A stretch of 32,000 nt of DNA from Telmatocola sphagniphila (lineage in GTDB: Bacteria > Planctomycetota > Planctomycetia > Gemmatales > Gemmataceae): positions 3,330,001 through 3,362,000 of the forward strand of contig NZ_CP074694.1 in NCBI RefSeq assembly GCF_018398935.1, in the 5' to 3' direction. The notes under the pieces were generated by a model that saw nothing but the letters and a program-made list of their open reading frames with translations, had not been told where the DNA came from and did not search any database. The first letter of the stretch is position 1, and the number at the start of each line of letters is the position of its first letter. This document shows, piece after piece, positions 481 to 27,541 of this stretch. The translations under genes and the position numbers were made by a program.

Positions 481-3099
481 CTACTTTTGGAACAAACGCG
501 ATCGCTTGTTAGCCGACGATTCAAGATAGGCCAACAGGTCGAGAATCTCTTCTTCCGTCAGCATATCGACCAGATGCTCGGGCATAGGTGATACTTTCGA
601 AACTTCTCGAATTTCAATTTCATTTTTCTTGATCTCGACACGATCAATCGACAGCGGATCGGGTTGCACGGCAATCTTTTCCGGTGTGTCATCGACAATT
701 CGGCCCACTACCGTCTTGCCGCCAACGGTAACAATTCGCTCGTTCATATACTGTTCCGACAGCACCTTGGAAGGCTCAATAATCGATTCCAGAATAGCGC
801 GGCGATCGAACCGGCTGGCGACCGAAGTCAAATCGGGGCCGACCGCACCGCCTTCATCGCCCAGGCGATGACATTTCACGCACTGGCCCACAACAAAGGC
901 TTCTTTGCCTTTTTCGAAATTGCGGCCGCGATCCACCTTATCGAGTTTGGGCATGATATCCGACATGGTGTAAGCTTTGACCACTGTAGTACGAGGCTTG
1001 TAGTTATAAGTTGCGACGGCCGTGACGTTCAGAGTCTTGAGCAGCGGTTCCAGTTCTTTTCGTTCAGAATCGAGTAGATTCGAAACTGCCTCGCGAAGGA
1101 AGTTCTTCAGGAAGTTGGGGAAGCTGGCTCCCTCCGAATACCCGCGCCCAGCATCGGCGAACCATTTGTCCATCATGGGATCGTGCTTGAGTGACTTCCA
1201 ATCCTTTTTGAAATAGCTGAAGTATTCCTTGCGTTGATCCATGGTCCAGTTGCCGGGCAACAAGGTCCGCAGATGGAACAGGAAGAACAAAACATCTTCC
1301 TGGTAGGTGGCGTGAGCCATCTCTTTGAGTACTTTCGTCGCAATTCCGGGAGCTTGCAGATAAATCAAGAGTTGAGCGGTTTCCCGGTTCAAATCCCGGC
1401 TCGCCGTCGGGAAGAGCGGATCGACTTCCGCGATAATCTTCTTCGCTATAGTGAAAGCAGGCCGTCCCTGTCGAATGAAGGCAAGATCCCACACCCGCAG
1501 TTTGTCCAGTTGCAGCACCGGCGATAATGAGGAGATCGGAAAAGCTTCCAGGGCCTTGAGCAATTCCGGTTGAAGCTTGGCATCACCGACACGAGCCAGA
1601 GCCAACAAAGCGGTCAGTGCGGCGGCCGGATTTTTCTCGGTCAGCGCCTTGTCCTTCCATTCGGCCACTGGCTGAGCTTCCAGAGCGATGCGGGCGGAAT
1701 ACTGCAAAAATCGATCAGGGCTGCTCAGGTGCGGCCAGACAAACGATACAGCTTTGGGATCGACTTTACCCTGAAAAGCTTCGATTTCATGCCGAAGTTT
1801 TCTCTCTGCTTCGCCAGCGGTATTCTTCAAATCGGCCGGAGCAGTCGATTCCTTGCCAGTATACGTGACACGATAAAGACCGGATTGATTGTTTCGACCG
1901 CCAATTGTGAAATAAAGAGCGCCATCATTGCCCACTACCGCGTCCGTTAAGGGCAACGGCTTTTTGGGTGCATTCGGATCGGTGAGGCTGATGGGAGCCA
2001 CAAAGTTTTCGAAGGTGGCCGTGTAGCTGGATCCTTTGGGGGTCAAATGCACAGCCAAAAGTCGCCCGTAGGTCCAATCGAGCATGTAGAGTGCTTTTTG
2101 ATATTTCGCTGGGAATTTGGCCCCGGTGCCGTTGGTCACACCGGTGGGAGAGCCGACACCGACATCTACTGCCGCAGGCAGGCTATCCGGATAGTAGGAG
2201 GGCCATTTTCCGGTGCCGGAACGCCAGCCGAATTCCGCACCGCTAATGCAGTGAAGGATGCGAATCGGCCGATACCAGGGCATGCCCCAGTCCCATTCCA
2301 TATCGCTATCGAAAGCGAATAATTCGCCATCACCATTAAACGCCATGTCATAAGTGTTGCGAAACCCCGCTAGCATCAACTGAATTTTCTGACCATCTGC
2401 ATCGGTTCGAACGATATAACCGCCCGGGGCTACAATACCCGCGGCGTGGCCATTGCCATCCCATTGTCGGGGTAGCAGGTGATCTTCTTTATAATTGCGG
2501 TGCGGCGAATCCTCGGAGAGCCCCTTGGGTAATTTGGTATGATTGCCGTTCACCACATAAATCATCTTGTCCGGCCCCAGGACTAAAGCGTGCGGGCCAT
2601 GTTCACCGTCCCCTTCAAACCGTTTCAGAAACTTAACGCTAAACTTGCCGCTGTCACCTGCTTCATTGCAGCGATAGAGCCCGAAACCTTCGGGGCCACT
2701 GGCATTTACATACAGGCTGTCGAACGCCCAGAGTAAACCCATCGCTTCGCTCAAAGGGATATCCAACTTTTCGACCTTGGAAACTTTGCCATCCATGATG
2801 GTGAAACGCAGCATCGGCTGGGACCGCTGACCGGAAACGATCAAACGACCGGCCCCATCCTTGCACATGTTGATCCAGGAACCCTCGCTTGCCGAATCGG
2901 ACGTGTGGATCAATTCGACTTTGAAATCGGGAAGCGTCTTGAGAAACTCCGCTTCGGTAGCGGAGCGTTTTGGCCCTGTCGACTTCTTTTGAGCTGTCTT
3001 CTTTTGGGACGCCTTCGGTTCCTGAGCATTGAACGGGGAGAACGAGCCGAGGCCAACCAAAAGGCCCAGTATCGCTGCGCACCTAGCTATCTTCCGCAT
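481..3099 (-). CDS. Secreted PVC-type heme-binding protein: beta-propeller dehydrogenase-like N-terminal region, helical repeat middle, C-terminal CxxCH cytochrome c domain
   Basis: I moved the start to the ATG at 3099-3097 (MRKIARCAAILGLLVGLGSFSPFNAQE, a signal peptide) with AAGGA upstream. The C-terminus reads GQCVKCHRLGDEGGAVGPDLTSVASRFDRRAILESIIEPSKVLSEQY...PMPEHLVDMLTEEEILDLLAYLES, with CVKCH at 868-882. This is the Pirellula/Verrucomicrobium-type putative heme-binding domain. The propeller-like region contains GHAAGIVAPGGYIVRTDADG and WDWGMPWYRP. Confidence 0.85.
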   Translation of the reverse strand: MRKIARCAAILGLLVGLGSFSPFNAQEPKASQKKTAQKKSTGPKRSATEAEFLKTLPDFKVELIHTSDSASEGSWINMCKDGAGRLIVSGQRSQPMLRFTIMDGKVSKVEKLDIPLSEAMGLLWAFDSLYVNASGPEGFGLYRCNEAGDSGKFSVKFLKRFEGDGEHGPHALVLGPDKMIYVVNGNHTKLPKGLSEDSPHRNYKEDHLLPRQWDGNGHAAGIVAPGGYIVRTDADGQKIQLMLAGFRNTYDMAFNGDGELFAFDSDMEWDWGMPWYRPIRILHCISGAEFGWRSGTGKWPSYYPDSLPAAVDVGVGSPTGVTNGTGAKFPAKYQKALYMLDWTYGRLLAVHLTPKGSSYTATFENFVAPISLTDPNAPKKPLPLTDAVVGNDGALYFTIGGRNNQSGLYRVTYTGKESTAPADLKNTAGEAERKLRHEIEAFQGKVDPKAVSFVWPHLSSPDRFLQYSARIALEAQPVAEWKDKALTEKNPAAALTALLALARVGDAKLQPELLKALEAFPISSLSPVLQLDKLRVWDLAFIRQGRPAFTIAKKIIAEVDPLFPTASRDLNRETAQLLIYLQAPGIATKVLKEMAHATYQEDVLFFLFHLRTLLPGNWTMDQRKEYFSYFKKDWKSLKHDPMMDKWFADAGRGYSEGASFPNFLKNFLREAVSNLLDSERKELEPLLKTLNVTAVATYNYKPRTTVVKAYTMSDIMPKLDKVDRGRNFEKGKEAFVVGQCVKCHRLGDEGGAVGPDLTSVASRFDRRAILESIIEPSKVLSEQYMNERIVTVGGKTVVGRIVDDTPEKIAVQPDPLSIDRVEIKKNEIEIREVSKVSPMPEHLVDMLTEEEILDLLAYLESSANKRSRLFQK

Positions 3100-3196
3100 C
3101 ACGGGAGATCCTTTCGACTTGAGAGATTCAATCACTACAAAGCAAAAAAACAGGCGGGTGGGAACATATGCCTGTCCCCTATTTATTGTCGAAAAT

Positions 3197-3229
3197 GGGG
3201 GAGAAAGAAAGAGAAAAAGAAAAAAAGAA
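3197..3229 (+). repeat. 33-nt uninterrupted homopurine tract in the divergent promoter region
   Basis: GGGGGAGAAAGAAAGAGAAAAAGAAAAAAAGAA contains only A and G on the plus strand. It lies between the two divergent start codons at 3099 and 3338. Confidence 0.9.
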
Positions 3230-3337
3230 TCGGACGATACGCCGCTCAAACAATGCTCTTGAAATCGTTCGAAAACTCTGCGAGACTTAACTGGTCTTTC
3301 CTTCCCGCCGAAAAATCGCTTCCCTTTGGATGATTTC

Positions 3338-6300
3338 ATGAAGTCGTTCTCAGTTCCACTCTTGTGGGTTAGCCTTTGTTTGACTTATTGGGGAACTTCA
3401 ACCCCTTCCGTTTGGGCGGTCGACCCGGCGGAACTTCCCAAATGTCCGCCCGGTTGGAAAGTGGAGCTGGTAGCCGCGGTACCGAAGATTCAACACCCGT
3501 CGGTAGTCTGTTGTGCCCCGGATGGGCGTGTCTTTGTGGGTGAGGACCCCATGGATATGGGCAGCGACTCTCGGACGCCGACAGATCGGATTCTCTGTTT
3601 TCACCCCGATGGCAAGGTAACGGTATTCGCTGACAACCTCTATGCCGTTTTCGGGATGGCCTACATCGACGGGAAACTTTTCGTTCATCATTGTCCGAAA
3701 TTCTCAGTATTTACCGATGATCACGGTGTGGGCAAAGACCGTCAGGATCTGATCGAATGCACCAATCCCAATCCCGCCCCCGGCTTTAACGATCATATCC
3801 CTTCCAACATGCGACTGGCGATGGACGGCTATCTCTACGTCAGTACTGGTGATAAAGGGGTGTTTGGTGCCGTGGGGAAGGATGGCCGGAAATGCGAAAT
3901 CTATGGCGGTGGCGTGTTCCGCATCCGCCCCGATGGCACCGGGCTCGAAACTTACTGTACGGGTACCCGCAATCACCTGGACGTCGCCATAAACCGCGAA
4001 GATGAAATCTTCACCTACGACAATACCGATGATGGCAATGGTTGGTGGACCCGCGTCACCCACATGGTAGATGGCGGATTCTACGGCTATCCCTGGGATT
4101 ATAAACCCAGACGGCCCTACACACTTTGGATGATGACCGATTACGGCGGAGGAGCGCCCACCGGAGCTACTGCCTACAACGAAGATGCCTTGCCGGAAGT
4201 GTATCAGGGCAATCTGTTTCTCTGCGAATGGGGCCGAAAGCAACTGCTACGATTGATCGTTCAGCGGGAAGGCGGCAGCTACAAAATCGTCAAGCGAGAA
4301 GATTTTCTAACATCTGGGACGAAGGAGTTTCGTCCCGTAGGAATTTGTACGACGCCGGATGGGATGGGCTTCTACGTCACCGACTGGAATTTTTCAGGAT
4401 GGAAGCAGAACGTTCCAGCCGGTCGGCTACTCAAGGTGACCTACACCGGGGCCAGCAAGGCGACTGAAAAACCCAAGTGGTTCGTGCCAGCCGCCATCGG
4501 TGAAAAATTTGAGGCTTCGAATGAAGATTTAATTGCCGGTCTCAAACACCCTTCTCAGGAAGTCCGGCTGGTTGCCCAACGACGGTTGATCGAAAGAGGC
4601 CCTGAAGTTTCCAAACCACTTTTGACACTCTTATCCGATAATTCGAGCCCGGCTTACGCCCGATGGAGTGCAATCTGGGCACTGGACGCGATCTCCGGAG
4701 ACAGCCCGGCCACGAGGAAGGACATTGCAGTCTACCTCGGAGATTCCGATCCCTCCGTTCGAAGACAAGTCCTACGCGAATTGGGCTCTCGATCAGCAAA
4801 TGAAGCCACCAGCAAGATCATTTCCTGTCTGGAAGATGCCGATGCTTCCGTGCGTTTTCAGGCCGCTACGGCACTCGGACGAATTGGTAATTCGGCCGCT
4901 ATCACACCGCTTCTGCAGTACCTGAAGACAGAAGATTTATTCTCCCGATATGCGGCTTTCACCGCCTTGAACCGTATCGGACATACCGATCCGAAATATT
5001 GGGATAAGATCGTCGTCGGTTTAAGCGACCCTAATCCGCGCATTCAGGAAGGCACCACGTTTGCCATCCGCGAGACGTTTGAAAATGGTCTGGTTTATGC
5101 TTTAAAGGAATTGATCGCCGAGCCCGGAACCAATCCTAGCGTCCGAGTCCAGGCATTGCACTCTCTGGCAGAACTGCATCGGAAGCCGGCGCCCTGGAAG
5201 GGTCAGTGGTGGGGTACTCAGCCGGTTCGCAGCCCCAAGCCGCACGGCACTCTAGACTGGGTGGGAACCAAAACGGTCCTGAATACCTTGGCAGCGAGCT
5301 TAAAGGATGGGGATCCTCAGGTAGTTCACGCGGCTATCGAGGGAGTAATTGTCGCTCAGGACGAACAGTTTGTCCCTGGACTCGTGGAGCTCTTCCAGAA
5401 GGATTCCAGCACTGAGACGAGAAAACTCGTTCTGCGAGCAGCGGCCGTGATCTCGAAACCGGCACCGTTCACCGATCTCGTAACAAAAGTTCTTGAGGAT
5501 CCGGTCGCGAATAAATCCCTGCTGGACGAGGCGATCAGAGTCGGCGACCGAATCGGCAGCCCGGGAATTCAAACGGCGCTTGTTAAACTCGTTTCTCAGG
5601 ATCTTCCACCGGAGACACTTTCGAAATTGCTGCGAGCCGTCGGAAATCGAGGATTGAAAGACGCGATTCCCGCAGTCGCTAACCGCGTGAGCAACGACAA
5701 CGCGAATGTCCGAGAATCGGCCGTTTTTGCACTGACGAAAATGGGAGATGCCGCTTCCCTTCATGCTTTGACCCCTCTGCTTTCTTCCCCCAACCTCGAA
5801 ACCCGAAAAGTGGCCGTGAACGCCATTGGGTCTCTCAAAAGTCCTGCCGCTACAGAGGGTTTGTTGGGGGCATTTGACCGAGCCGAGACTCGCTACGAAG
5901 CTCTGCTCGGCTTATCGAAATTGACCGATTCCCGGGCACTTCCCGCCTATCTGGTCGGGTTAGCCAGCAAGAATGCCACGCTTCGGGCGGATTGCCGTAA
6001 GGCATTGAGCGATGTTCGAAATCTGGTCTATCCAGAAATCGAAAAACGATTGGATGCAGGAGCAATTTCTCCGGAAGTAGTCGGAGAATTGCAAAGCATC
6101 TACGCAGCGAAGTCTCCCATCAAGTGGAAATTGCTAGGCCCCTTCGCGGTCGACTCCGAAATTCCCTTCGATCTCCAGAAGCCCGATCTGAGGAAAGAAT
6201 ACTCTGGTCGGGAGGCCCGAAAGTTTCGATGGAAGTCAATTCCCACGCAAGATCGAGATCCCGCCAATTTGGACTGGCGAAGAGAAGTTCGTATCGATGG

Positions 6301-7066
6301 CCCCAGTAAAGCGTTTGGCCAAAGCGAAGTCTATTCTCCCGTCGCCGGAGAGATAACTCTCGAAGGAAGTTTCAGTGGTGCCGAATTGCGTTTGTGGCTG
6401 AATGGTGAACAAATTTTCAAATCGGAAAAAGCTGGTCGAATTTCGCTCAACGCTAAAACTCAGGCCGGGGAGAACATGCTCATCGCCGAAGCCCTCACCA
6501 CGGGCGGTTCCTGGACTCTGCGATTGGCCGCCAACACTCCGAAATCAGGAAAACTGTTTGCGGCCAGCGCTGCCAAGCCGATCGATATCAAGAAGTTTAG
6601 CGAGCATGCTTTGAAGAAATCCGGCTCCGCCGAACGCGGTAAGCTGCTCTTCTCGGACATTCAGGGACTAGGATGCATCAAGTGTCACAAAGTCGGCAAT
6701 CTTGGAACGGGAGAAGTCGGCCCCGACCTTCTCGGAGTAGGAGCCAAATACAACCGGGAAATTCTGATTGAATCGGTGCTCTACCCGTCCAAACAAATTT
6801 TGGATGGCTACCAACAAACCCGGATTGCAACTTCTTCGGGTCAGGTAAAACTGGGCATCGTTCGCGGTGAAACCGGTGATGCCATTACTCTGATTGATGT
6901 CGATGGGAAGAAAGAGTCCATTAAGAAAGTCGATATCGAAGAACGGAAAGTCCTAGATAAATCCTTGATGCCGGACGGTCTGCAGGCCGGGCTGTCGCTT
7001 CAAGATTTCAGCGACCTGATAGCCTTTTTGGAAAGCTTGAAAGAAAAGCCGCCCGAGAAAAAGTGA
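3338..7066 (+). CDS. Secreted PVC-type heme-binding protein: membrane-bound-dehydrogenase-like domain, long HEAT-repeat region, beta-sandwich, C-terminal CxxCH cytochrome c domain
   Basis: I prefer the ATG at 3338 (MKSFSVPLLWVSLCLTYWGTSTPSVWA, a signal peptide) to the TTG at 3326 used by the ORF track. The N-terminus reads PPGWKVELVAAVPKIQHPSVVCCAPDGRVFVGEDPMDMG. HEAT-like repeats are visible (DPSVRRQVLRELG, DADASVRFQAATALGRIG, DNANVRESAVFALTKMG, NLETRKVAVNAIGSL). The C-terminus reads GCIKCHKVGNLGTGEVGPDLLGVGAKYNREILIESVLYPSKQILDGY...LMPDGLQAGLSLQDFSDLIAFLESL, with CIKCH at 6674-6688. That C-terminal domain is paralogous to the one in the 481-3099 gene. Confidence 0.85.
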   Translation: MKSFSVPLLWVSLCLTYWGTSTPSVWAVDPAELPKCPPGWKVELVAAVPKIQHPSVVCCAPDGRVFVGEDPMDMGSDSRTPTDRILCFHPDGKVTVFADNLYAVFGMAYIDGKLFVHHCPKFSVFTDDHGVGKDRQDLIECTNPNPAPGFNDHIPSNMRLAMDGYLYVSTGDKGVFGAVGKDGRKCEIYGGGVFRIRPDGTGLETYCTGTRNHLDVAINREDEIFTYDNTDDGNGWWTRVTHMVDGGFYGYPWDYKPRRPYTLWMMTDYGGGAPTGATAYNEDALPEVYQGNLFLCEWGRKQLLRLIVQREGGSYKIVKREDFLTSGTKEFRPVGICTTPDGMGFYVTDWNFSGWKQNVPAGRLLKVTYTGASKATEKPKWFVPAAIGEKFEASNEDLIAGLKHPSQEVRLVAQRRLIERGPEVSKPLLTLLSDNSSPAYARWSAIWALDAISGDSPATRKDIAVYLGDSDPSVRRQVLRELGSRSANEATSKIISCLEDADASVRFQAATALGRIGNSAAITPLLQYLKTEDLFSRYAAFTALNRIGHTDPKYWDKIVVGLSDPNPRIQEGTTFAIRETFENGLVYALKELIAEPGTNPSVRVQALHSLAELHRKPAPWKGQWWGTQPVRSPKPHGTLDWVGTKTVLNTLAASLKDGDPQVVHAAIEGVIVAQDEQFVPGLVELFQKDSSTETRKLVLRAAAVISKPAPFTDLVTKVLEDPVANKSLLDEAIRVGDRIGSPGIQTALVKLVSQDLPPETLSKLLRAVGNRGLKDAIPAVANRVSNDNANVRESAVFALTKMGDAASLHALTPLLSSPNLETRKVAVNAIGSLKSPAATEGLLGAFDRAETRYEALLGLSKLTDSRALPAYLVGLASKNATLRADCRKALSDVRNLVYPEIEKRLDAGAISPEVVGELQSIYAAKSPIKWKLLGPFAVDSEIPFDLQKPDLRKEYSGREARKFRWKSIPTQDRDPANLDWRREVRIDGPSKAFGQSEVYSPVAGEITLEGSFSGAELRLWLNGEQIFKSEKAGRISLNAKTQAGENMLIAEALTTGGSWTLRLAANTPKSGKLFAASAAKPIDIKKFSEHALKKSGSAERGKLLFSDIQGLGCIKCHKVGNLGTGEVGPDLLGVGAKYNREILIESVLYPSKQILDGYQQTRIATSSGQVKLGIVRGETGDAITLIDVDGKKESIKKVDIEERKVLDKSLMPDGLQAGLSLQDFSDLIAFLESLKEKPPEKK

Positions 7067-20571: not shown

Positions 20572-21201
20572 TCAGTTGGAATACTCCGGCGCTTCACAGC
20601 CCTGCTTCTGGAGTTCCGGTTGGACCACATCTTTCCAGCAATTCGGGCAGATGCTGTGGCTGAATTTCGCTTCGGAATGTTCCTTGAAGTAGGCTTCCAC
20701 GCGATGCCAGTAGTTATGATCGTCTCGTATGCTTTTGCAATAAGAACAGATGGGGAGCAACCCCTGGAGTTGTTTCACCTTGGCGAGTGCGTTTTCCAGC
20801 TCTTTGACGCGTTCGAATAACTCGGCCTGCAGATTGACCATTCTCGCGCCGACGCTGACTCGGGCCAGCAATTCCTCTTTATCGAACGGCTTGGTCACAT
20901 AGTCGTTCGCTCCCGCTTTGAGACCCCGGAGAATGTACTCTTTACTCCCCCGGGAGGTGAGCAGGATGATGTAGACTCCGGGAAGCTTGGGTTCCTGACG
21001 AATGCGCTGACAGACTTCTATGCCGTCCATTTCTGACATCAGCCAATCCAGCACCACCAGTTGCGGCGGGTTTTCTCCCTTGAGAATTTCCCAGGCTTCC
21101 GTTCCATCAGTCGTAGATGTTACTTCATAGCCGCCGCGCGTCAGCATCGTTTCCAGTTCAATTCGGGAAACGTCGTCGTCATCCGCGATCAAGACACGCA
21201 T
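20572..21201 (-). CDS. Response regulator: receiver domain, coiled-coil linker and a C-terminal Cys/His-rich (CxxC...H...CxxC) domain
   Basis: The REC domain reads MRVLIADDDDVSRIELE...LVVLDWLMSEMDG...DYVTKPF. The C-terminus reads LLPICSYCKSIRDDHNYWHRVEAYFKEHSEAKFSHSICPNCW. A strong SD (GGAAGGAGG) precedes the ATG at 21201. The start overlaps the upstream kinase gene by 13 nt. Confidence 0.9.
   Translation of the reverse strand: MRVLIADDDDVSRIELETMLTRGGYEVTSTTDGTEAWEILKGENPPQLVVLDWLMSEMDGIEVCQRIRQEPKLPGVYIILLTSRGSKEYILRGLKAGANDYVTKPFDKEELLARVSVGARMVNLQAELFERVKELENALAKVKQLQGLLPICSYCKSIRDDHNYWHRVEAYFKEHSEAKFSHSICPNCWKDVVQPELQKQGCEAPEYSN
20632..20763 (-). other. Cys/His-rich putative metal-binding output module of the response regulator (residues about 147-190)
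   Basis: Candidate ligands are C152, C155, H162, H166, H175, H182, C185 and C188 in the stretch LPICSYCKSIRDDHNYWHRVEAYFKEHSEAKFSHSICPNCWK. I see no helix-turn-helix or enzymatic motif. Confidence 0.6.
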
Positions 21202-23903
21202 GGGGTGCCTCCTTCCACAAATTCCTTCAATGCCGTCTCCAGCCGAGCCACTTCCGCTTCCAGAACCTTATAAGTCTCCGAAGCTTCAGAAAAATTGGCA
21301 TTTCGACCCATTATTTCCAACCGGCTGGCCAGTTCCGTGGCTAACCCCGCAGAAAACCCTGCCATTGAGCCTTTGAGTTTATGCGCTTTCCGTTCCAGGG
21401 AATCCGCATCCCGAACGAGGCAGGCCTTCTCGAGTTCGGGTAGAAGCTTTCCCGACTGCTTAATGAAGGATAGAACCATTTTTTCTAAAAGTTCGCGATC
21501 TCCCTCAACTCGCTCCAACAGCCGGACCGGATCAAAGATTGCGGTCGCCGTGCTAGCGCCCTCTAACGTTGTTTCTTCCGCCTCGATTTCCGGTATTTCG
21601 GGCAAAAAGCGGTCGAGCGTTTCAAAAAATTCCTTCACTCGCAATGGCTTGGAGATATACCCATCCATTCCCGCTTGCAGACAGCGTTCTTTGTCTCCTT
21701 TCATGGCGTGGGCTGTGAGAGCCAGAATGGGAACGCGTCCGTTCTTGTCCTTATCCCATTCGCGAATTTTCGCCGTGGCCGCGAACCCATCCATTTCCGG
21801 CATCTGGACATCCATCAGGACCAGGTCGAACTTGTGGCGGGTGTAGACCTGTAATGCTTCCCGGCCATTATTGGTTACATGAACCTTGTGACCCCGTTTT
21901 TCGAGTAAGCGCAAGGCCAGCATCTGGTTGACTTCATTATCGTCGGCCAGCAAAATGCGCCGGCCCGATTTGGATGAGAGACTCGCAATCGCCTTGCTGT
22001 CAGGCCGAACGCGGGTCGATTTCCCATTGCGATAATACGTGCTGCCCCGACGTTCGATGCTATCGGACAGTTCGAAATGCACGTCGAAGAAGAAGGTGCT
22101 CCCCTTACCCACTTCGCTCTTGACTTTCAGTTCCCCGGCGAGCAGTTCCACCAGTTGAGCGGATATAGCCAGCCCCAGTCCGGTACCTCCAAATCGTCGT
22201 GTGGTCGAACTGTCGGCTTGAGTGAAGGCTTCGAATATGAGCGGAAGCTTGTCTTCGGATATTCCGATTCCTGTATCCTCCACACTTACCGCAAGGCAGA
22301 CATCCGTCTCTGTCATGGCCTTGAGTGTGACGTGAACGACAACCCGGCCTTTCTCGGTGAACTTAATCGCATTACCAACCAGGTTGGTTATGATTTGCCG
22401 GAAGCGAAGGGGATCACCCAGCAAATTGTCGGGAACGTCCTCGCTGATCTCGCCCTGAAGAACCAGTCCCTTGGTGTCCGCACGGACCTTCATCACTTTC
22501 AGGGTGTCGTGAATATTATGCCGGAGCGAAAAGGCGATACAGTCCAGATCCAATTTTCCGGCTTCGATCTTGGAAAAATCGAGAATATCATCGATCAGTC
22601 GCAACAGCGCATCTGCCGAGGACTTCACCGTCAGCAGGTAATCTCGCTGCTCCCGCGTCAGGTCGCTGTCCAACGCCAATTCGGTCATCCCCAGGATACC
22701 GTTCATCGGGGTTCGAATTTCATGGGACATATTGGCCAAAAATTCGCTCTTGGCCTGATTGGCAGCCTCGGCGGCCTGCCGGGCTTTTTGCATCTCCTCA
22801 GCGGCCAGTTTTCGTAAAGTGATGTCCTGAAACTGGTTGATGAAGTATTGAGGACGCCGGTCTTCATCTCGAATGAGCGAGGAATTCAGTTGTACCCAGA
22901 TGAAGTGGCCCTGCTTGTGGATGAATCGCTTTTCCATCTGGTAGGTCGGTATCTCCCCCATCAGGACTTTCTGCACAAACTCTAAATCTTCTGCGAGATC
23001 ATCGGCGTGGGTGATCATCTGAAAATTCATGGCGAGCATTTGCGCCTCGGAGTATCCGAGGATCGCGCAGAGCGCGGAGTTCACATCGAGAAACTTCCCG
23101 TTGAGGGACACCAGTGCCATGCCCACCGCCGCGAAGTCAAAGCCTCCTCGGAAGCGTTCTTCACTTTCTCGCAACTTTTCCGTTGTCTGGCGTAGCGCGT
23201 CGGTCTGCCGCATCAATTGCGCGGTTCGCTGCTGAACGGTCTGTTCGATCCACTCCCCGGCGGTTTCCAATTGGGCCTGTCGCTCGGCCATTGCCCGCAT
23301 TCGCTGGGCGCCGAGAATGCAGGCGGGAATCAGAAACAAATCCTCGAATAAAATCCAGCCGGTGTGTTCCAACCAGCGCCATTGAGAGGGATTTGCGTCA
23401 CCGAAAACCGACAGCGGCCAGTAAGTACCGCGTATGTAGTGATCCAGTGCCACGACCAGCGAGGCGGAAATAATGACTCGCCAATCCCGATAAAAAGCCA
23501 GAAAAGCTAAAGAACCGAAGATGTGAAAATGCGTTTCGAGGCGGCCACCCGTCAGGTGAATCAAAAGGCAGCTCATCATCATTTGAGCGATGCCCATGCA
23601 ATGGCGGGTGATAACTCCACCCGGACTGCACAGGGCCAGCAACATCGGGAAAATCACAATCATACCACCGAGGAAGAGAGCAGCCCAGACGTGAGAGTGA
23701 ACTTCGCTGGCGGCCCCTTTCCAGGTGTAGGGGGAGATCCAGATGGAAGTGACAATGCAGATGAACCATTCCAGCGCCAGGAAGTAGGCGAACCAGCGAT
23801 CTGTTCGACGGAGGTTGACTTGCTCCTGTTCGATATAGAGTCGGTTCGCACGACGTGCGACCTCGTCGTAGGATTCCGATTGCTGAATTTCCGGGTGGGT
23901 CAT
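21189..23903 (-). CDS. Hybrid sensor histidine kinase: 6-TM His-rich N-terminal domain, PAS, HisKA, HATPase_c, REC, Hpt
   Basis: Six hydrophobic segments span residues 36-200. The PAS region reads FRGGFDFAAVGMALVSLNGKFLDVNSALCAILGYS. The H-box is FLANMSHEIRTPMNGILG, with the His codon at 22722-22724. The G-boxes read DTGIGI...RRFGGTGLGLAIS. The receiver reads RILLADDNEVNQ...LVLMDVQMPEMDG. The Hpt motif is ERKAHKLKGSMAGF. Confidence 0.9.
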   Translation of the reverse strand: MTHPEIQQSESYDEVARRANRLYIEQEQVNLRRTDRWFAYFLALEWFICIVTSIWISPYTWKGAASEVHSHVWAALFLGGMIVIFPMLLALCSPGGVITRHCMGIAQMMMSCLLIHLTGGRLETHFHIFGSLAFLAFYRDWRVIISASLVVALDHYIRGTYWPLSVFGDANPSQWRWLEHTGWILFEDLFLIPACILGAQRMRAMAERQAQLETAGEWIEQTVQQRTAQLMRQTDALRQTTEKLRESEERFRGGFDFAAVGMALVSLNGKFLDVNSALCAILGYSEAQMLAMNFQMITHADDLAEDLEFVQKVLMGEIPTYQMEKRFIHKQGHFIWVQLNSSLIRDEDRRPQYFINQFQDITLRKLAAEEMQKARQAAEAANQAKSEFLANMSHEIRTPMNGILGMTELALDSDLTREQRDYLLTVKSSADALLRLIDDILDFSKIEAGKLDLDCIAFSLRHNIHDTLKVMKVRADTKGLVLQGEISEDVPDNLLGDPLRFRQIITNLVGNAIKFTEKGRVVVHVTLKAMTETDVCLAVSVEDTGIGISEDKLPLIFEAFTQADSSTTRRFGGTGLGLAISAQLVELLAGELKVKSEVGKGSTFFFDVHFELSDSIERRGSTYYRNGKSTRVRPDSKAIASLSSKSGRRILLADDNEVNQMLALRLLEKRGHKVHVTNNGREALQVYTRHKFDLVLMDVQMPEMDGFAATAKIREWDKDKNGRVPILALTAHAMKGDKERCLQAGMDGYISKPLRVKEFFETLDRFLPEIPEIEAEETTLEGASTATAIFDPVRLLERVEGDRELLEKMVLSFIKQSGKLLPELEKACLVRDADSLERKAHKLKGSMAGFSAGLATELASRLEIMGRNANFSEASETYKVLEAEVARLETALKEFVEGGTPCVS

Positions 23904-23927: not shown

Positions 23928-24539
23928 TTAATCGAAGAGGCTGCATCCATAGACGGGAGCCAATCGTTCATAATTGAGTTCCCCACTGAGAATGGCCTGA
24001 ATGCTTTGAATGCCGATACAATCCCCACGCTGAGAGGCCGCAGGAGTGATCCCTCCGCTAAAGGCCAAATTTCCCCGAGCGTCGTAAAGCAGTACTTGAC
24101 CCGAGGCTTCCAGGCCAAATTTTTTGGATTCCGTCCCGCCGAGATCGGTAATAACTACAGTTGCATGGATTTCGCGCGCCTCTTCATAAAGTTCCGACTG
24201 TACCCACTCCAGGGGCATACCTGTCGGCTTCAGTACGAGAATGTAGCTCTCGACTTTCTTGCCAGACAATTTCAGTAGTAACTCCAACTCCTTGAGACTC
24301 GCATGCGAGCACTCACAATGCGGATGCAGAGCAAATACCAGTCGAATTTTTCCGGGAGTCGAGTTCAAACTGGTACTGGCCGGCCAGACCGGACTGGCAG
24401 TCCCGACCACCGCTGGGTTCGTGTCCGAATCCCAAAGGCTGGAGAAGCCCAGGACGACGGTCACCATCCACAACAACCCGATTGCTGCGATTATGCTGGT
24501 CCAACCGCTCCAACGCCGACCTCGTGTCATTCCCGGCAT
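23928..24539 (-). CDS. Membrane-anchored thioredoxin-fold protein with a CxC motif (function unknown)
   Basis: I chose the ATG at 24539 (MPGMTRGRRWSGW...) over the TTG at 24545. The N-terminal TM anchor is WTSIIAAIGLLWMVTVVLGF. A beta-strand followed by HPHCECSHASLKELELLL sits where redoxin-fold proteins carry CxxC. A second Cys pair is present (RGDCIG and YGCSLFD). Its stop is 24 nt upstream of the hybrid kinase start. Confidence 0.55.
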   Translation of the reverse strand: MPGMTRGRRWSGWTSIIAAIGLLWMVTVVLGFSSLWDSDTNPAVVGTASPVWPASTSLNSTPGKIRLVFALHPHCECSHASLKELELLLKLSGKKVESYILVLKPTGMPLEWVQSELYEEAREIHATVVITDLGGTESKKFGLEASGQVLLYDARGNLAFSGGITPAASQRGDCIGIQSIQAILSGELNYERLAPVYGCSLFD

Positions 24540-24823
24540 CTTCAAAGACCCCTATTTACGATCTCATCCAACGTAAACTTAGTTCGGGAAGACCCCGTCA
24601 AAGCTAAGGGAATTCCTGATCGCAGCAGGAAGAAGTCCGATCTAAAATTCGTCAATGAGATGAAATATGCGGACACAATGCCAATTTTGGAATTTGGTTA
24701 AAAAGAGATCCGTTTTCACGTTGCTCAGGAATTTGATGAGATATATTTGCAGGAAGTCACAGAGTCCGGTTAGGGGAGCATTCCAAGCGCTTTTTTTCAA
24801 GTACCCGATTAAAGCTCAACCCC

Positions 24824-27541
24824 ATGTTGCACCCACGAGTTGAAGCTATGTATTCTATTGCAGCCGAAGTCCAACCTCCGACGATCATTCGATCCAACAT
24901 CTGGGGCAGACTTTTCGATTGCGTCAGTGAGGGTATAGAAATATACGACTTAGCCACCGGCAAGTTGGTAGACGTCAACCGTCCAATTTGCGATATGCAC
25001 GGCTATTCGAAGCTGGAATATCTCAGTAGTCCCCCCCAAACTCCTTTAGCTTTCGAGCACACGACGCTTGGTTTTGAGATGATGGCCGCGCGGCTCCGCG
25101 AAGGCGAGTCATTCTTTCAGGAATTCGAGAGGCGCCGAAAAGACGGAAGTTCGTTCCCAGCCGAAATTCGGGCGGAACTTTTCCAATCGGACAGAGAATA
25201 TCTCATTTTTCTGATCTCCGATATTTCGCAACGACGCCAGATCGAAAGTTCGCTTCGCGAGAGCGAACTGAAAATACGCACTATTCTCGACTCGGAACCG
25301 GAATGCGTGAAGTGCCTGGACGAGAATGGAATTGTCCTTCAGATTAATCCGGCCGGCGTGGCCATGATCGAGGCCGACTCCGCAAAGCAAGTTTTGAACC
25401 TGTGTGTTTTCCCATTGATCGTCCCGGAAGATCGGGAGCGCTATCGTGAAATGCTTCGAAGAGGGTTTTCCGGAGAATCGGTTACTCTCGAATACGAAAC
25501 CAACAGTCTGCGCGGCAACCGATTGATTTTTGAAACGCATTGCAGCCCCCTACGCGATTCCTCCAACAAAATCATTTCTCTGGTATCCATCACACGGGAC
25601 ATAACCGCCCGCAAAAAAGCTGAAAAAGCTCTATTCGCCAGCGAGGAGTTGTTTCGCACCTTCATGAATTACATTCCCATGGCGGCGTGGATTACCGATA
25701 CGCAGGGACGAGTTGTATTCGTGAGCGAAGGTTGTCGCAAACTTTTTCAGGTCTCCGATGGCGACTTAATTGGCAATGGATTTGCCAAACAGTTTCCGGA
25801 AGTCAGTACTTGCTTCAATTCTCAAAATCTCCCACATACGGATCTGGGCAATCGGCCATTCAAATCTTTGCATACCGGAATTCGTGCGGATGGCAGCAAG
25901 GGGGAATTTCTCGTCTACAAATTCCCGATTCGAACGGATCGGGAACTCGTAGGCGGAGTGGCGATCGATCTGACTGATCAGATTAAGATGCAGGAGGAGC
26001 TAATCTCGCTGGGACGGGCCGTTTCTGCTTCGACGCAGGGAATCCTGATTACCGATAACACTCTCCCGGAAAATCCGATCACTTATGTAAGCCCGGCCTT
26101 TGAAAGGCTGACCGGTTTTAGCCTTCAGGAGGCACTCGGACGAAACTGCCGGTTTCTGCAGGGTAAAGATACCGACCCGGCCAGTGTGGCCGTCATGCGT
26201 CAAACCATTAAATCCCAAACGTCCTGCAACATCGAAATTTTGAACTATCGCAAGGATGGCACGGCGTTCTGGAACGCGGTATTCATTAGCCCCATTCGGG
26301 ATGAGGCGGGCCGAGTTACGAATTTCATAGGCGTGCAGACGGATATTACCGAACGCCGTAAACTCGAAGAACAACTTCGGCAAGCCCTGAAAATGGAAGC
26401 GATCGGCCGTTTAGCCGGCGGAGTGGCCCATGACTTCAATAATTTGCTGACTGTGATTAACGGCTATAGCGATCTCCTGATCGAAAAATTGCGACCCGAA
26501 GATCCGATGCGGGATTTACTCGCAGAAATCCATAAAGCGGGTGAACGAGCCGGCGGATTAACCCGGCAGCTTCTGGCGTTCAGCCGGCAGCAGGTTCTCG
26601 AGCCCAAGATTTTGAACTTGAACGATGTACTATTTGAGAGTGAGAAATTGCTCCGGCGGTTGATCGGAGAAGATGTCATTCTCGATATTATTAAGGATCC
26701 TTCTCTCGGCTGTACCAAGCTCGACCCGGTTCAAATTGAACAGATCATCATCAATCTCTCGGTAAATGCCCAGGACGCGATGCCCCGGGGTGGGCTGTTG
26801 ACCATTCGCACCAGTTCTGAAAATGTCCTCGAAAACAACGCTCCGGGAACTTCCTCGATACCGCCGGGAGATTATATCTGCTTGAGCGTCCAGGATACGG
26901 GAATGGGCATCGATGACGACACACTCACTCGAATCTTCGAGCCCTTTTTTACGACCAAAGGTCTCGGCAAAGGCACCGGACTGGGTTTGTCCACGGTTCA
27001 TGGAATCGCCAGCCAATCTGGCGGTTATATCACCGTTTCCACGGCCGTCGGAAAAGGTACGACTTTCAAAATCTATTTTCCCAAGGTGGAATCCTCGGGC
27101 TGGAACAGAAAATCCATTATTAGTAACGGAAAGCTGCCTCGCGGCACCGAAACCATTCTGCTCGTCGAAGATGAGGATGCGGTTCGTATCTTGGCCAAGC
27201 ACATTTTGCGAACGTGCGGCTATACCGTACTGGACGCTCCAAATGGTAATGTTGCACTCGAGATCGCTCGAACCCATTTAGGGAATATCGATCTTCTGAT
27301 TTCCGATGTCGTGATGCCTTATCTGGGGGGCCGGGAACTCGCGGAGAAAATCCTCTCGATTCGACCCGATTGTCTCGTGTTATTTCTCTCGGGCTACACC
27401 GATGATGCCCTGCTGCGGCACGGCGTCCGCGAAGCGGAATTTGCCTTTTTACAAAAACCCTTTTCCCCGCCGCTGTTGGCCCATAAAGTTCGAGCGACTC
27501 TGGATGAAAAAACTCCCAGCCTTGAAGAAGTCTCCATTTAA
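24824..27541 (+). CDS. Multi-PAS LOV-domain hybrid histidine kinase (PAS x3, LOV, HisKA, HATPase_c, REC)
   Basis: Three PAS-like units are followed by the LOV motif GRNCRFLQG. The H-box is LAGGVAHDFNNLLTVINGYSDLL. The ATPase boxes read NLSVNAQDAMP, VQDTGMGID and GKGTGLGLSTVHGI. The C-terminal receiver reads TILLVEDEDAVR...LLISDVVMPYLGG...LQKPF. No Hpt domain is present. Confidence 0.9.
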   Translation: MLHPRVEAMYSIAAEVQPPTIIRSNIWGRLFDCVSEGIEIYDLATGKLVDVNRPICDMHGYSKLEYLSSPPQTPLAFEHTTLGFEMMAARLREGESFFQEFERRRKDGSSFPAEIRAELFQSDREYLIFLISDISQRRQIESSLRESELKIRTILDSEPECVKCLDENGIVLQINPAGVAMIEADSAKQVLNLCVFPLIVPEDRERYREMLRRGFSGESVTLEYETNSLRGNRLIFETHCSPLRDSSNKIISLVSITRDITARKKAEKALFASEELFRTFMNYIPMAAWITDTQGRVVFVSEGCRKLFQVSDGDLIGNGFAKQFPEVSTCFNSQNLPHTDLGNRPFKSLHTGIRADGSKGEFLVYKFPIRTDRELVGGVAIDLTDQIKMQEELISLGRAVSASTQGILITDNTLPENPITYVSPAFERLTGFSLQEALGRNCRFLQGKDTDPASVAVMRQTIKSQTSCNIEILNYRKDGTAFWNAVFISPIRDEAGRVTNFIGVQTDITERRKLEEQLRQALKMEAIGRLAGGVAHDFNNLLTVINGYSDLLIEKLRPEDPMRDLLAEIHKAGERAGGLTRQLLAFSRQQVLEPKILNLNDVLFESEKLLRRLIGEDVILDIIKDPSLGCTKLDPVQIEQIIINLSVNAQDAMPRGGLLTIRTSSENVLENNAPGTSSIPPGDYICLSVQDTGMGIDDDTLTRIFEPFFTTKGLGKGTGLGLSTVHGIASQSGGYITVSTAVGKGTTFKIYFPKVESSGWNRKSIISNGKLPRGTETILLVEDEDAVRILAKHILRTCGYTVLDAPNGNVALEIARTHLGNIDLLISDVVMPYLGGRELAEKILSIRPDCLVLFLSGYTDDALLRHGVREAEFAFLQKPFSPPLLAHKVRATLDEKTPSLEEVSI
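26021..26350 (+). other. LOV (light-oxygen-voltage) flavin-binding PAS domain, residues about 400-509 of the kinase
   Basis: GILITDNTLPENPITYVSPAFERLTGFSLQEALGRNCRFLQGKDTDPASVAVMRQTIKSQTSCNIEILNYRKDGTAFWNAVFISPIRDEAGRVTNFIGVQTDITERR can be lined up by eye with YtvA/phototropin LOV cores. The adduct-forming Cys442 codon is at 26147-26149. Confidence 0.85.

Follow-up and report, generated by a model that had tools for sequence, protein, structure and literature searches.

A widespread four-cysteine module as the apparently undescribed C-terminal output domain of a planctomycete response regulator and of other bacterial sensors

Introduction

Output domains define what bacterial sensors control, and their main classes, namely DNA binding, kinases, cyclases and chemotaxis, have been known for decades. 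A response regulator of the planctomycete Telmatocola sphagniphila, in which a receiver is followed by a short tail carrying two CxxC pairs, raises the question of what the output of such a protein might be. Its gene lies in the window, by which is meant the whole stretch of DNA that was analysed (32,000 nucleotides, positions 3,330,001 to 3,362,000 of contig NZ_CP074694.1). An earlier note, made from the letters of the window, had described a standard receiver, a coiled-coil linker and an uncharacterised tail that was suggested to be zinc-ribbon-like or Fe-S/redox-active and to act as the output.

The regulator, its kinase and its neighbours

The features of the locus are as follows.

20572..21201, minus strand: response regulator gene, 209 amino acids plus stop, comprising receiver, coiled coil and Cys4 module (ORF list)
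20857..21195, minus strand: receiver (REC) domain, residues 3-115 (Pfam PF00072, E 6.8e-31, 107.2 bits, cut-off 30.2)
20764..20841, minus strand: heptad coiled-coil linker, residues 121-146, prolonging REC helix alpha-5 (hydrophobic pattern in 159 relatives)
20752..20763, minus strand: hinge G147-L-L-P150, the boundary between coiled coil and module (conservation and end of the AlphaFold helix)
20638..20748, minus strand: Cys4 module core, C152-x2-C155-x29-C185-P-x-C188 (regex match, conservation, AlphaFold)
20575..20637, minus strand: final module helix plus the variable C-terminal tail, residues 189-209 (low conservation, low pLDDT)
21189..23903, minus strand: cognate hybrid histidine kinase with membrane region, PAS, HisKA, HATPase_c, REC and Hpt (Pfam)

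The receiver is indeed a standard one, with a Pfam Response_reg match over residues 3-115 (107 bits against a cut-off of 30.2), and direct reading of the translation finds all of the REC catalytic residues, that is the acidic pocket D7-D10, the phospho-acceptor D52 (within VVLDWLM, codon 21046-21048), T82 in LLTS and K104 in TKPF, the K-P-F of which is invariant in 159 relatives. The tail quoted in the earlier note (LLPICSYCKSIRDDHNYWHRVEAYFKEHSEAKFSHSICPNCW), which was placed at 20632-20763 and so covers residues 147-190, is present as described but is not the end of the protein, since 19 further and poorly conserved residues (191-209, DVVQPELQKQGCEAPEYSN) follow the quoted W. Exactly 29 residues separate the pair C152 and C155 from the pair C185 and C188, in keeping with the spacing of about 30 previously claimed, and the core also holds K156, R159, D160/D161, W165, E169, Y171, H175 and H182. 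The pattern is not a chance one, since CxxC-x20-40-CxxC occurs in the regulator tail and nowhere else in the six frames of the window, and since the spacing and the surrounding residues recur in every homologue examined.

The stop of the kinase gene overlaps the start of the regulator gene by 13 nt and, because this overlapping hybrid kinase has both REC and Hpt domains, the regulator is taken to be the final step of a phosphorelay, which would run from the kinase to its own receiver, then to Hpt and on to the terminal regulator. HisKA and HATPase_c are encoded upstream of the orthologues at 23-24 of 40 loci and Hpt at 16 of 40. Downstream of the window regulator lies a convergent gene for a DAO oxidoreductase; the downstream genes of the orthologues vary and the order of kinase followed by regulator is kept. 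When the ORFs within 5 kb of 198 module genes were clustered, two-component proteins were the only recurrent family (97 loci) and the next real neighbour family reached at most 7 loci; recurrent clusters of 150-amino-acid neighbours proved to be shadow ORFs antisense to kinase genes. The module genes did not cluster with one another, and the PAS- and MASE6-linked examples are isolated genes.

The first 240 or so residues of the kinase (21189-23903, minus strand) form a multi-pass membrane sensor part that is rich in His and Trp and has no Pfam match. Directly upstream of it is a 205-amino-acid ORF (23928-24545, minus strand) with an N-terminal membrane anchor, an HPHCECSH motif and no Pfam family, which may encode a thioredoxin-like periplasmic partner of the sensing region of the kinase. 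Divergent from the kinase-regulator operon, at 24824-27541 (plus strand), is the gene for another hybrid histidine kinase, which has several PAS domains and a receiver. Elsewhere in the window are genes for two very large cytochrome c-motif proteins (481-3339, minus strand; 3326-7066, plus strand), one of which adds HEAT repeats, DUF7133 and a glucose/sorbosone dehydrogenase-like region; these genes and the Gemmataceae-like orthologues are in keeping with the planctomycete source of the window.

Searches for a known family or fold

The claim that the tail is uncharacterised held in all of the resources searched. A profile search, which the earlier note had suggested, placed it in no characterised domain family, there being no match above threshold in Pfam or NCBIfam even when matches were listed to E ≤ 10, and 70 diverse cores scanned singly gave only a sub-threshold match of 13 residues to DUF3039 and scattered zinc-ribbon noise. 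Comparison with all PDB chains gave no significant match to the module (best sequence E 0.022, best profile E 0.062), and no description of it was found in the full-text literature using motif strings and descriptive terms. Homologues bear generic source names ('response regulator', 'CheY-like', 'RsbU', 'hypothetical') and the precomputed Pfam content of the full-length orthologues is PF00072 only. The output domain thus appears to be undescribed in Pfam, NCBIfam and the PDB, and it is set in a standard framework of phosphorelay, receiver and signalling helix.

AlphaFold, given an alignment of 150 sequences, predicted a metal-free monomer with a pLDDT of 89.4, in which the module, of about 45-60 residues, has a beta-alpha-beta-alpha topology; an earlier run with 38 sequences had reached 70.9 and its Foldseek matches were meaningless. 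In the predicted order, a coiled-coil helix that stops at the G147-P150 hinge is followed by a strand that runs up to the first Cys, a short helix containing the second Cys, a 15-residue helix from W165 to H175, a second strand (FSHS) and CPxC opening the last helix, and in the last block the pLDDT drops to 59. The better model was compared with the PDB by Foldseek, and the best match had an E of 1.9 and TM-scores below 0.5 (query-normalised) and 0.2 (target-normalised).

A classical zinc ribbon consists of two beta-hairpin zinc knuckles on a three-stranded antiparallel sheet, whereas the model has two strands with helices between them and each CxxC at a strand-to-helix junction, and the zinc-ribbon profiles of Pfam (Zn_ribbon_3, DZR_2 and others) gave 11-15 bits against cut-offs of 27. 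The suggestion of a zinc-ribbon-like domain was therefore not borne out. In a treble clef the first ligand pair is in a hairpin knuckle and the second at the N-terminus of a helix; in the model C185 and C188 do open a helix (positions 59-72 of the model), but the first pair is a strand end leading into a short helix, with no clear hairpin knuckle, and no treble-clef structure in the PDB was matched by Foldseek. The likeness to a thioredoxin-fold CPxC oxidoreductase is confined to a local strand-CPxC-helix arrangement in a module too short for the full fold (Thioredoxin_2 matched 6 of 70 cores at E ≥ 0.026, and the local match to glutaredoxin-8, Grx8, had an E of 0.15). The spacing C-x2-C-x29-C-P-x-C is also that of clostridial rubredoxin, likewise a small four-cysteine domain with a single metal, as the module would be. 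The agreement stops at the spacing, however, since the module has no Gly after either pair and a predicted 15-residue helix in place of the sheet and loops of rubredoxin, with an hhalign probability of 2% and no match to Pfam Rubredoxin.

Other candidates were set aside. DUF3039 (PF11238) was matched by 44 of the 70 cores at profile positions 41-53 only, with about 14 bits against a cut-off of 22.7, and the likeness is to a common P-I-C-x-x-C-K string and not to a domain. The profile comparison probability for ribosomal protein L36 was 5%, the zinc-finger extension of heliorhodopsin has the dissimilar spacing CxxC-x17-CxxC, and the match to PDB 7yjw (E 0.06) involved the first half of the module only.

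Size, distribution and conservation of the family

When 1.84 billion cluster representatives were searched exhaustively with a profile, 20,144 protein clusters were retrieved at E ≤ 1e-10 and 24,427 at E ≤ 1e-3. Some of the weaker hits may lack the module, since the profile took in the end of the receiver (REC helix alpha-5) and the linker as well. The spacing C-x2-C-x29-C-x2-C is kept in nearly all of the retrieved proteins, but the homologue lists are partly biased, both by this extent of the profile and by a regex that demanded the exact 29-residue spacing. A genome scan gave at least 600 matches, the taxonomy being taken from the best 80 loci. Among these 80 were Gemmataceae and other Planctomycetota, Acidobacteriota, Verrucomicrobiota, Rokubacteria, deltaproteobacterial lineages (including a MAG labelled as Myxococcota), Gemmatimonadota, Ignavibacteriales, Chitinophagales, Cloacimonadota and Armatimonadota, so that both the Planctomycetota and the deltaproteobacterial lineages which the earlier note had named as carrying the tail were found to do so. 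Full-length orthologues of about 210 amino acids, one of them from Zavarzinella formosa, are 60-72% identical to the window protein.

In 319 non-redundant cores drawn from different architectures, the four Cys, the Pro preceding the first Cys and one Trp are invariant, and K+4, R+7, D+9, E+17, Y+19 and H+30 are 90-96% conserved. Conservation reaches at least 70% at about 23 of 37 core positions, including the Pro of CPxC (87%), and falls after the fourth Cys; the hinge has Gly in 94% and Pro in 100% of the cores. The His residues that had been read as part of the motif are conserved at 81% (H+23) and 90%, and are thus not invariant, and both are replaced in some copies, for example by VSSG in internal copies of tandem proteins. 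As the His residues are replaceable and the four Cys invariant, the conservation pattern suggests that the metal site of the module is most likely Cys4. Averaged over the 319 cores, the net charge of the module is -1.4.

The module as an output domain

An important consideration is where the module stands in proteins that are chosen on the module alone. A DNA-motif scan of metagenomes, which selects in this way, yielded 120 loci with 92 complete ORFs, and in 90 of the 92 the module was 5-36 residues before the C-terminus of the protein. Pfam domains found in 88 of these metagenome ORFs were PAS (about 27) and REC (22), followed by SBP_bac_3, Tll0287-like and HAMP (4 each), HisKA_7TM and MASE6 (3 each), MASE3, GAF and dCache (2 each) and MASE1 and CHASE (1 each), which agrees with the statement in the earlier note that similar tails end both PAS and REC proteins. 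The 25 most frequent families in the 88 ORFs included neither HisKA, HATPase, GGDEF, EAL nor HTH, and so no kinase core, cyclase, phosphodiesterase or DNA-binding domain. A profile-ranked set is in agreement, with REC in 61 and MASE6 in 19 of 101 proteins and all else as single cases, and many of the carriers are membrane sensors (MASE1/3/6, 7TM, and Cache or CHASE with HAMP). Since the module is found only behind input domains, at the position usually taken by a transmitter, it is the output domain of these sensors, as had been proposed for the tail of the window protein.

Only rarely does a protein continue past the module (into a partial HisKA, Hpt, HTH_17, PilZ or another REC); each of these is a single case that resembles read-through, and they were left out as evidence of fusion. 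One of the 101 profile-ranked proteins, P0078 (343 amino acids), is a receiver-module protein that runs on into a PilZ domain (E 2.9e-7); this may be either a genuine fusion, which would point to a connection with c-di-GMP, or an artefact of read-through.

Phasing of the linker

The linker quoted in the earlier note, LQAELFERVKELENALAKVKQLQ, lies within residues 121-146 and is a coiled coil as stated there, in that hydrophobic residues at positions 121, 124, 128, 132, 135, 139, 142 and 145 are conserved in 159 relatives as a 3-4 repeat, after which come the near-invariant Gly and Pro. Of 170 proteins, 160, that of the window included, have a distance of 48 residues between the conserved Lys of REC (K104 in the window protein) and the first Cys (C152), and the others have one of 34, 41 or 55. 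In PAS-linked proteins the distance from the DIT motif to the first Cys is 35 residues in 39 cases, 21 in four, 28 in two and 42 in one, so that all of the length steps, behind REC and PAS alike, are sevens. Both marks of a signalling-helix-coupled output, heptad-quantised lengths and a heptad hydrophobic pattern, are therefore found.

The linker lengths of Rec-GGDEF cyclases are likewise quantised in sevens (PMC8041772). Crystallographic work on one of them, DgcR, showed that pseudo-phosphorylation leads to a shift of register in a parallel coiled coil, whereupon the two output domains meet and become active (PMC8041772). Given the same heptad phasing, we infer the same design for the module proteins, and by this analogy the functional unit would be two paired modules, with the coiled coil fixing how they are placed relative to each other.

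Proposed mechanism and alternatives

The interpretation preferred here, to which we would give somewhat less than an even chance, is that the module is a metal-stabilised (probably zinc) mini-domain that serves as a dimeric, phase-controlled output, is repositioned by phosphorylation and binds one conserved target. We infer metal binding and the identity of the metal, dimerisation, the switching step and the protein nature of the target along the following lines. The functional module, of about 60 residues, would comprise the last two turns of the coiled coil, the Gly/Pro hinge and the beta-alpha-beta-alpha core, in which the four invariant Cys most likely serve as ligands of a single structural metal ion, which is probably zinc. 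Two chains would pair via the extended alpha-5 coiled coil, and phosphorylation of D52 would rearrange the receiver dimer and thereby alter the packing or register of the coil, which in turn would reset the relative position of the two modules past the hinge. The paired modules would then expose or hide a composite, near-invariant surface that binds one conserved target, putatively a protein or complex with its gene or genes at some other site in the genome. A common and distant target is favoured because the surface is near-invariant across paralogues and phyla and no linked partner gene was found, and these same features, taken with the acidic charge and the frequent anchoring in the membrane, make sequence-specific binding to DNA less likely. 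Two points weigh against the proposal: the conserved positions, some 23 of 37, are more than simple docking usually needs and would also fit a ligand pocket or catalytic site, and CPxC with a rubredoxin-like spacing would fit an iron or redox centre.

A more far-reaching possibility, and a doubtful one, is that the module is the shared connector of an unrecognised network, in which varied sensors (PAS, REC, MASE, 7TM and HAMP/Cache/CHASE) of at least ten phyla would all present one near-invariant Cys4 surface, as a phase-controlled pair, to a single conserved hub, or the pair would form a small-molecule site. RNA polymerase, a protease, the ribosome or another such piece of cellular machinery might serve as that hub.

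It is unlikely, though less so than the other rival explanations, that the cysteines form a redox or iron centre, be it a rubredoxin-like Fe(Cys)4 site, an Fe-S cluster bridging the dimer or reversible disulfides, and a role in which the module adds a redox input that gates the regulator, or passes a redox signal on, is unlikely to the same degree. The second pair is a CPxC (Pro in 87%) with the spacing of clostridial rubredoxin, the strand-CPxC-helix of the AlphaFold model resembles a thioredoxin-fold active site, there are weak local matches to glutaredoxin-8 and to Thioredoxin_2, and the membrane-anchored HPHCECSH ORF is just upstream of the kinase. The profile comparison nevertheless gave rubredoxin a probability of 2%, with no rubredoxin match in Pfam at E ≤ 10, and the middle of the module is predicted to be a long helix and not the rubredoxin sheet. 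Moreover, a pure input domain should often accompany kinase, cyclase or DNA-binding outputs, which the module almost never does, it being the only non-sensor part of its carriers, and Fe-S assembly genes do not recur near the 198 module genes. Iron in place of zinc would not in itself refute an output role, and as the identity of the metal and the role of the module are separable, the redox explanation partly overlaps with that of a metal-stabilised output. Less probable than a redox centre is a small-molecule site, in which modules paired by the coiled coil would form a pocket for a nucleotide messenger or metabolite, or would catalyse a reaction, as paired GGDEF domains do. The unusual conservation of polar and aromatic residues (K, R, D, D, Y, W, E, Y, H, S/T, H), the strict heptad phasing, which is the design of Rec-GGDEF enzymes, and the lack of partner genes would all suit this; on the other hand the module has only about 45-60 residues, bears no known nucleotide-binding motif and has no fold relative among enzymes or ligand-binding domains (Foldseek against the PDB), and the PilZ fusion is a single case of 101 that may be read-through.

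That the paired zinc modules bind DNA or RNA, the regulator being a transcription or translation factor, is more improbable again. Small Cys4 domains are often nucleic-acid binders, coiled-coil dimers are typical of DNA-binding proteins, a conserved basic patch (C-K-K-I-R) lies beside the first pair and some automatic annotations read 'response regulator transcription factor', but these are generic names and not tests, and the mean net charge of -1.4 and the many carriers that are integral membrane sensors argue otherwise. So does the near-identity of the surface across paralogues with different inputs, since paralogous DNA-binding proteins normally diverge in their recognition residues, and no conserved divergent target genes adjoin the loci. 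Finally, it is very improbable that the module is a passive cap with no output role of its own, even though single-domain regulators acting through the receiver surface are common and the internal copies found in tandem MASE6 proteins leave room for a structural role. Carriers linked to PAS, MASE, HAMP or Cache would then be left without any output, the conservation of surface residues is far above what a cap would need, and a cap has no need of heptad phasing.

Comparison with known systems and significance

The metal-stabilised output preferred above has partial counterparts in several known systems. The C-terminal zinc domain of SecA, the N-terminal C4 domain of ClpX, which works as a dimer, and the C4 finger of DksA/TraR are small four-ligand metal domains, too small to fold without the metal, that dock on conserved machines. 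None of them is known as the output of sensor proteins, and the module has no detectable sequence relation to them and differs in cysteine spacing and in its predicted beta-alpha-beta-alpha topology; zf-C4_ClpX matched one of 70 cores (E 0.009), and zf-dskA_traR matched neither the window protein nor any of the 70 cores.

GGDEF catalytic domains are much larger than a Cys4 module of 45-60 residues. The module also differs from the output of the Rec-coiled-coil-GGDEF cyclases (DgcR of Leptospira biflexa, WspR and the PleD type) in having neither GGDEF/DxLT motifs nor a known product. The overall design is otherwise alike, with receiver helix alpha-5 running into a coiled coil (a parallel one in the cyclases), a short hinge, a C-terminal output domain that works as a pair (which for the module would follow from the phasing) and discrete linker lengths seven residues apart (PMC8041772). 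Another comparable domain is HalOD2, the receiver-linked C-terminal output of haloarchaeal regulators, which also has two conserved CXXC motifs and is a predicted zinc finger of unknown function (PMC5847659). The pairs of HalOD2 are, however, 20-25 residues apart and the domain is confined to a few halobacteria (PMC5847659), whereas the module, a bacterial one, keeps to a spacing of exactly 29, has a much wider distribution and also follows PAS, MASE, HAMP and other inputs.

The module is present in at least some 20,000 protein clusters and yet has no entry in Pfam, NCBIfam or the PDB. As the only output of many thousands of sensors in many phyla it probably marks an unstudied signalling route. 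Its carriers belong to phyla that abound in soil and sediment, among them Planctomycetota, Acidobacteriota, Verrucomicrobiota, Myxococcota, Thermodesulfobacteriota and Nitrospirota. The target, once found, would assign a function to a large group of sensors and could reveal a new regulatory hub. If the doubtful case of a shared network were true, the module would represent a convergent output layer, so far unstudied, with a logic like that of chemotaxis arrays or c-di-GMP signalling. With its linker phased in heptads, the system is open to direct testing and might also yield a small switchable part for protein engineering.

Variant gene arrangements

A number of loci depart from the usual arrangement. 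Single ORFs with two modules are of the type MASE6-module-MASE6-module (P0043, L085:6001-7671, and about 40 similar) or PAS-module-linker-module (P0052, L086:6001-7032), and the internal copy in the MASE6 tandem type often keeps the four Cys, the Trp and the Arg and loses F-S-H-G (VSSG, ISSG or AEA instead). Apparent stand-alone module proteins of 63-90 amino acids turned out to be the second halves of split or frameshifted REC-module genes, and so do not speak for a small protein in its own right. In three independent metagenome contigs (L082:1854-2486, L083:4632-5231 and L084:3174-3806) the receiver and the coil plus module are two adjacent genes about 45 nt apart, and in these the split regulator may be genuine rather than a sequencing error. 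The only plasmid match is in Dongshaea marina (NZ_CP028898.1, 32166-40303), where an IS21 transposase gene lies between a GAF-domain gene and an unannotated remnant of the module, which looks like a GAF-module gene disrupted by insertion of the IS element.
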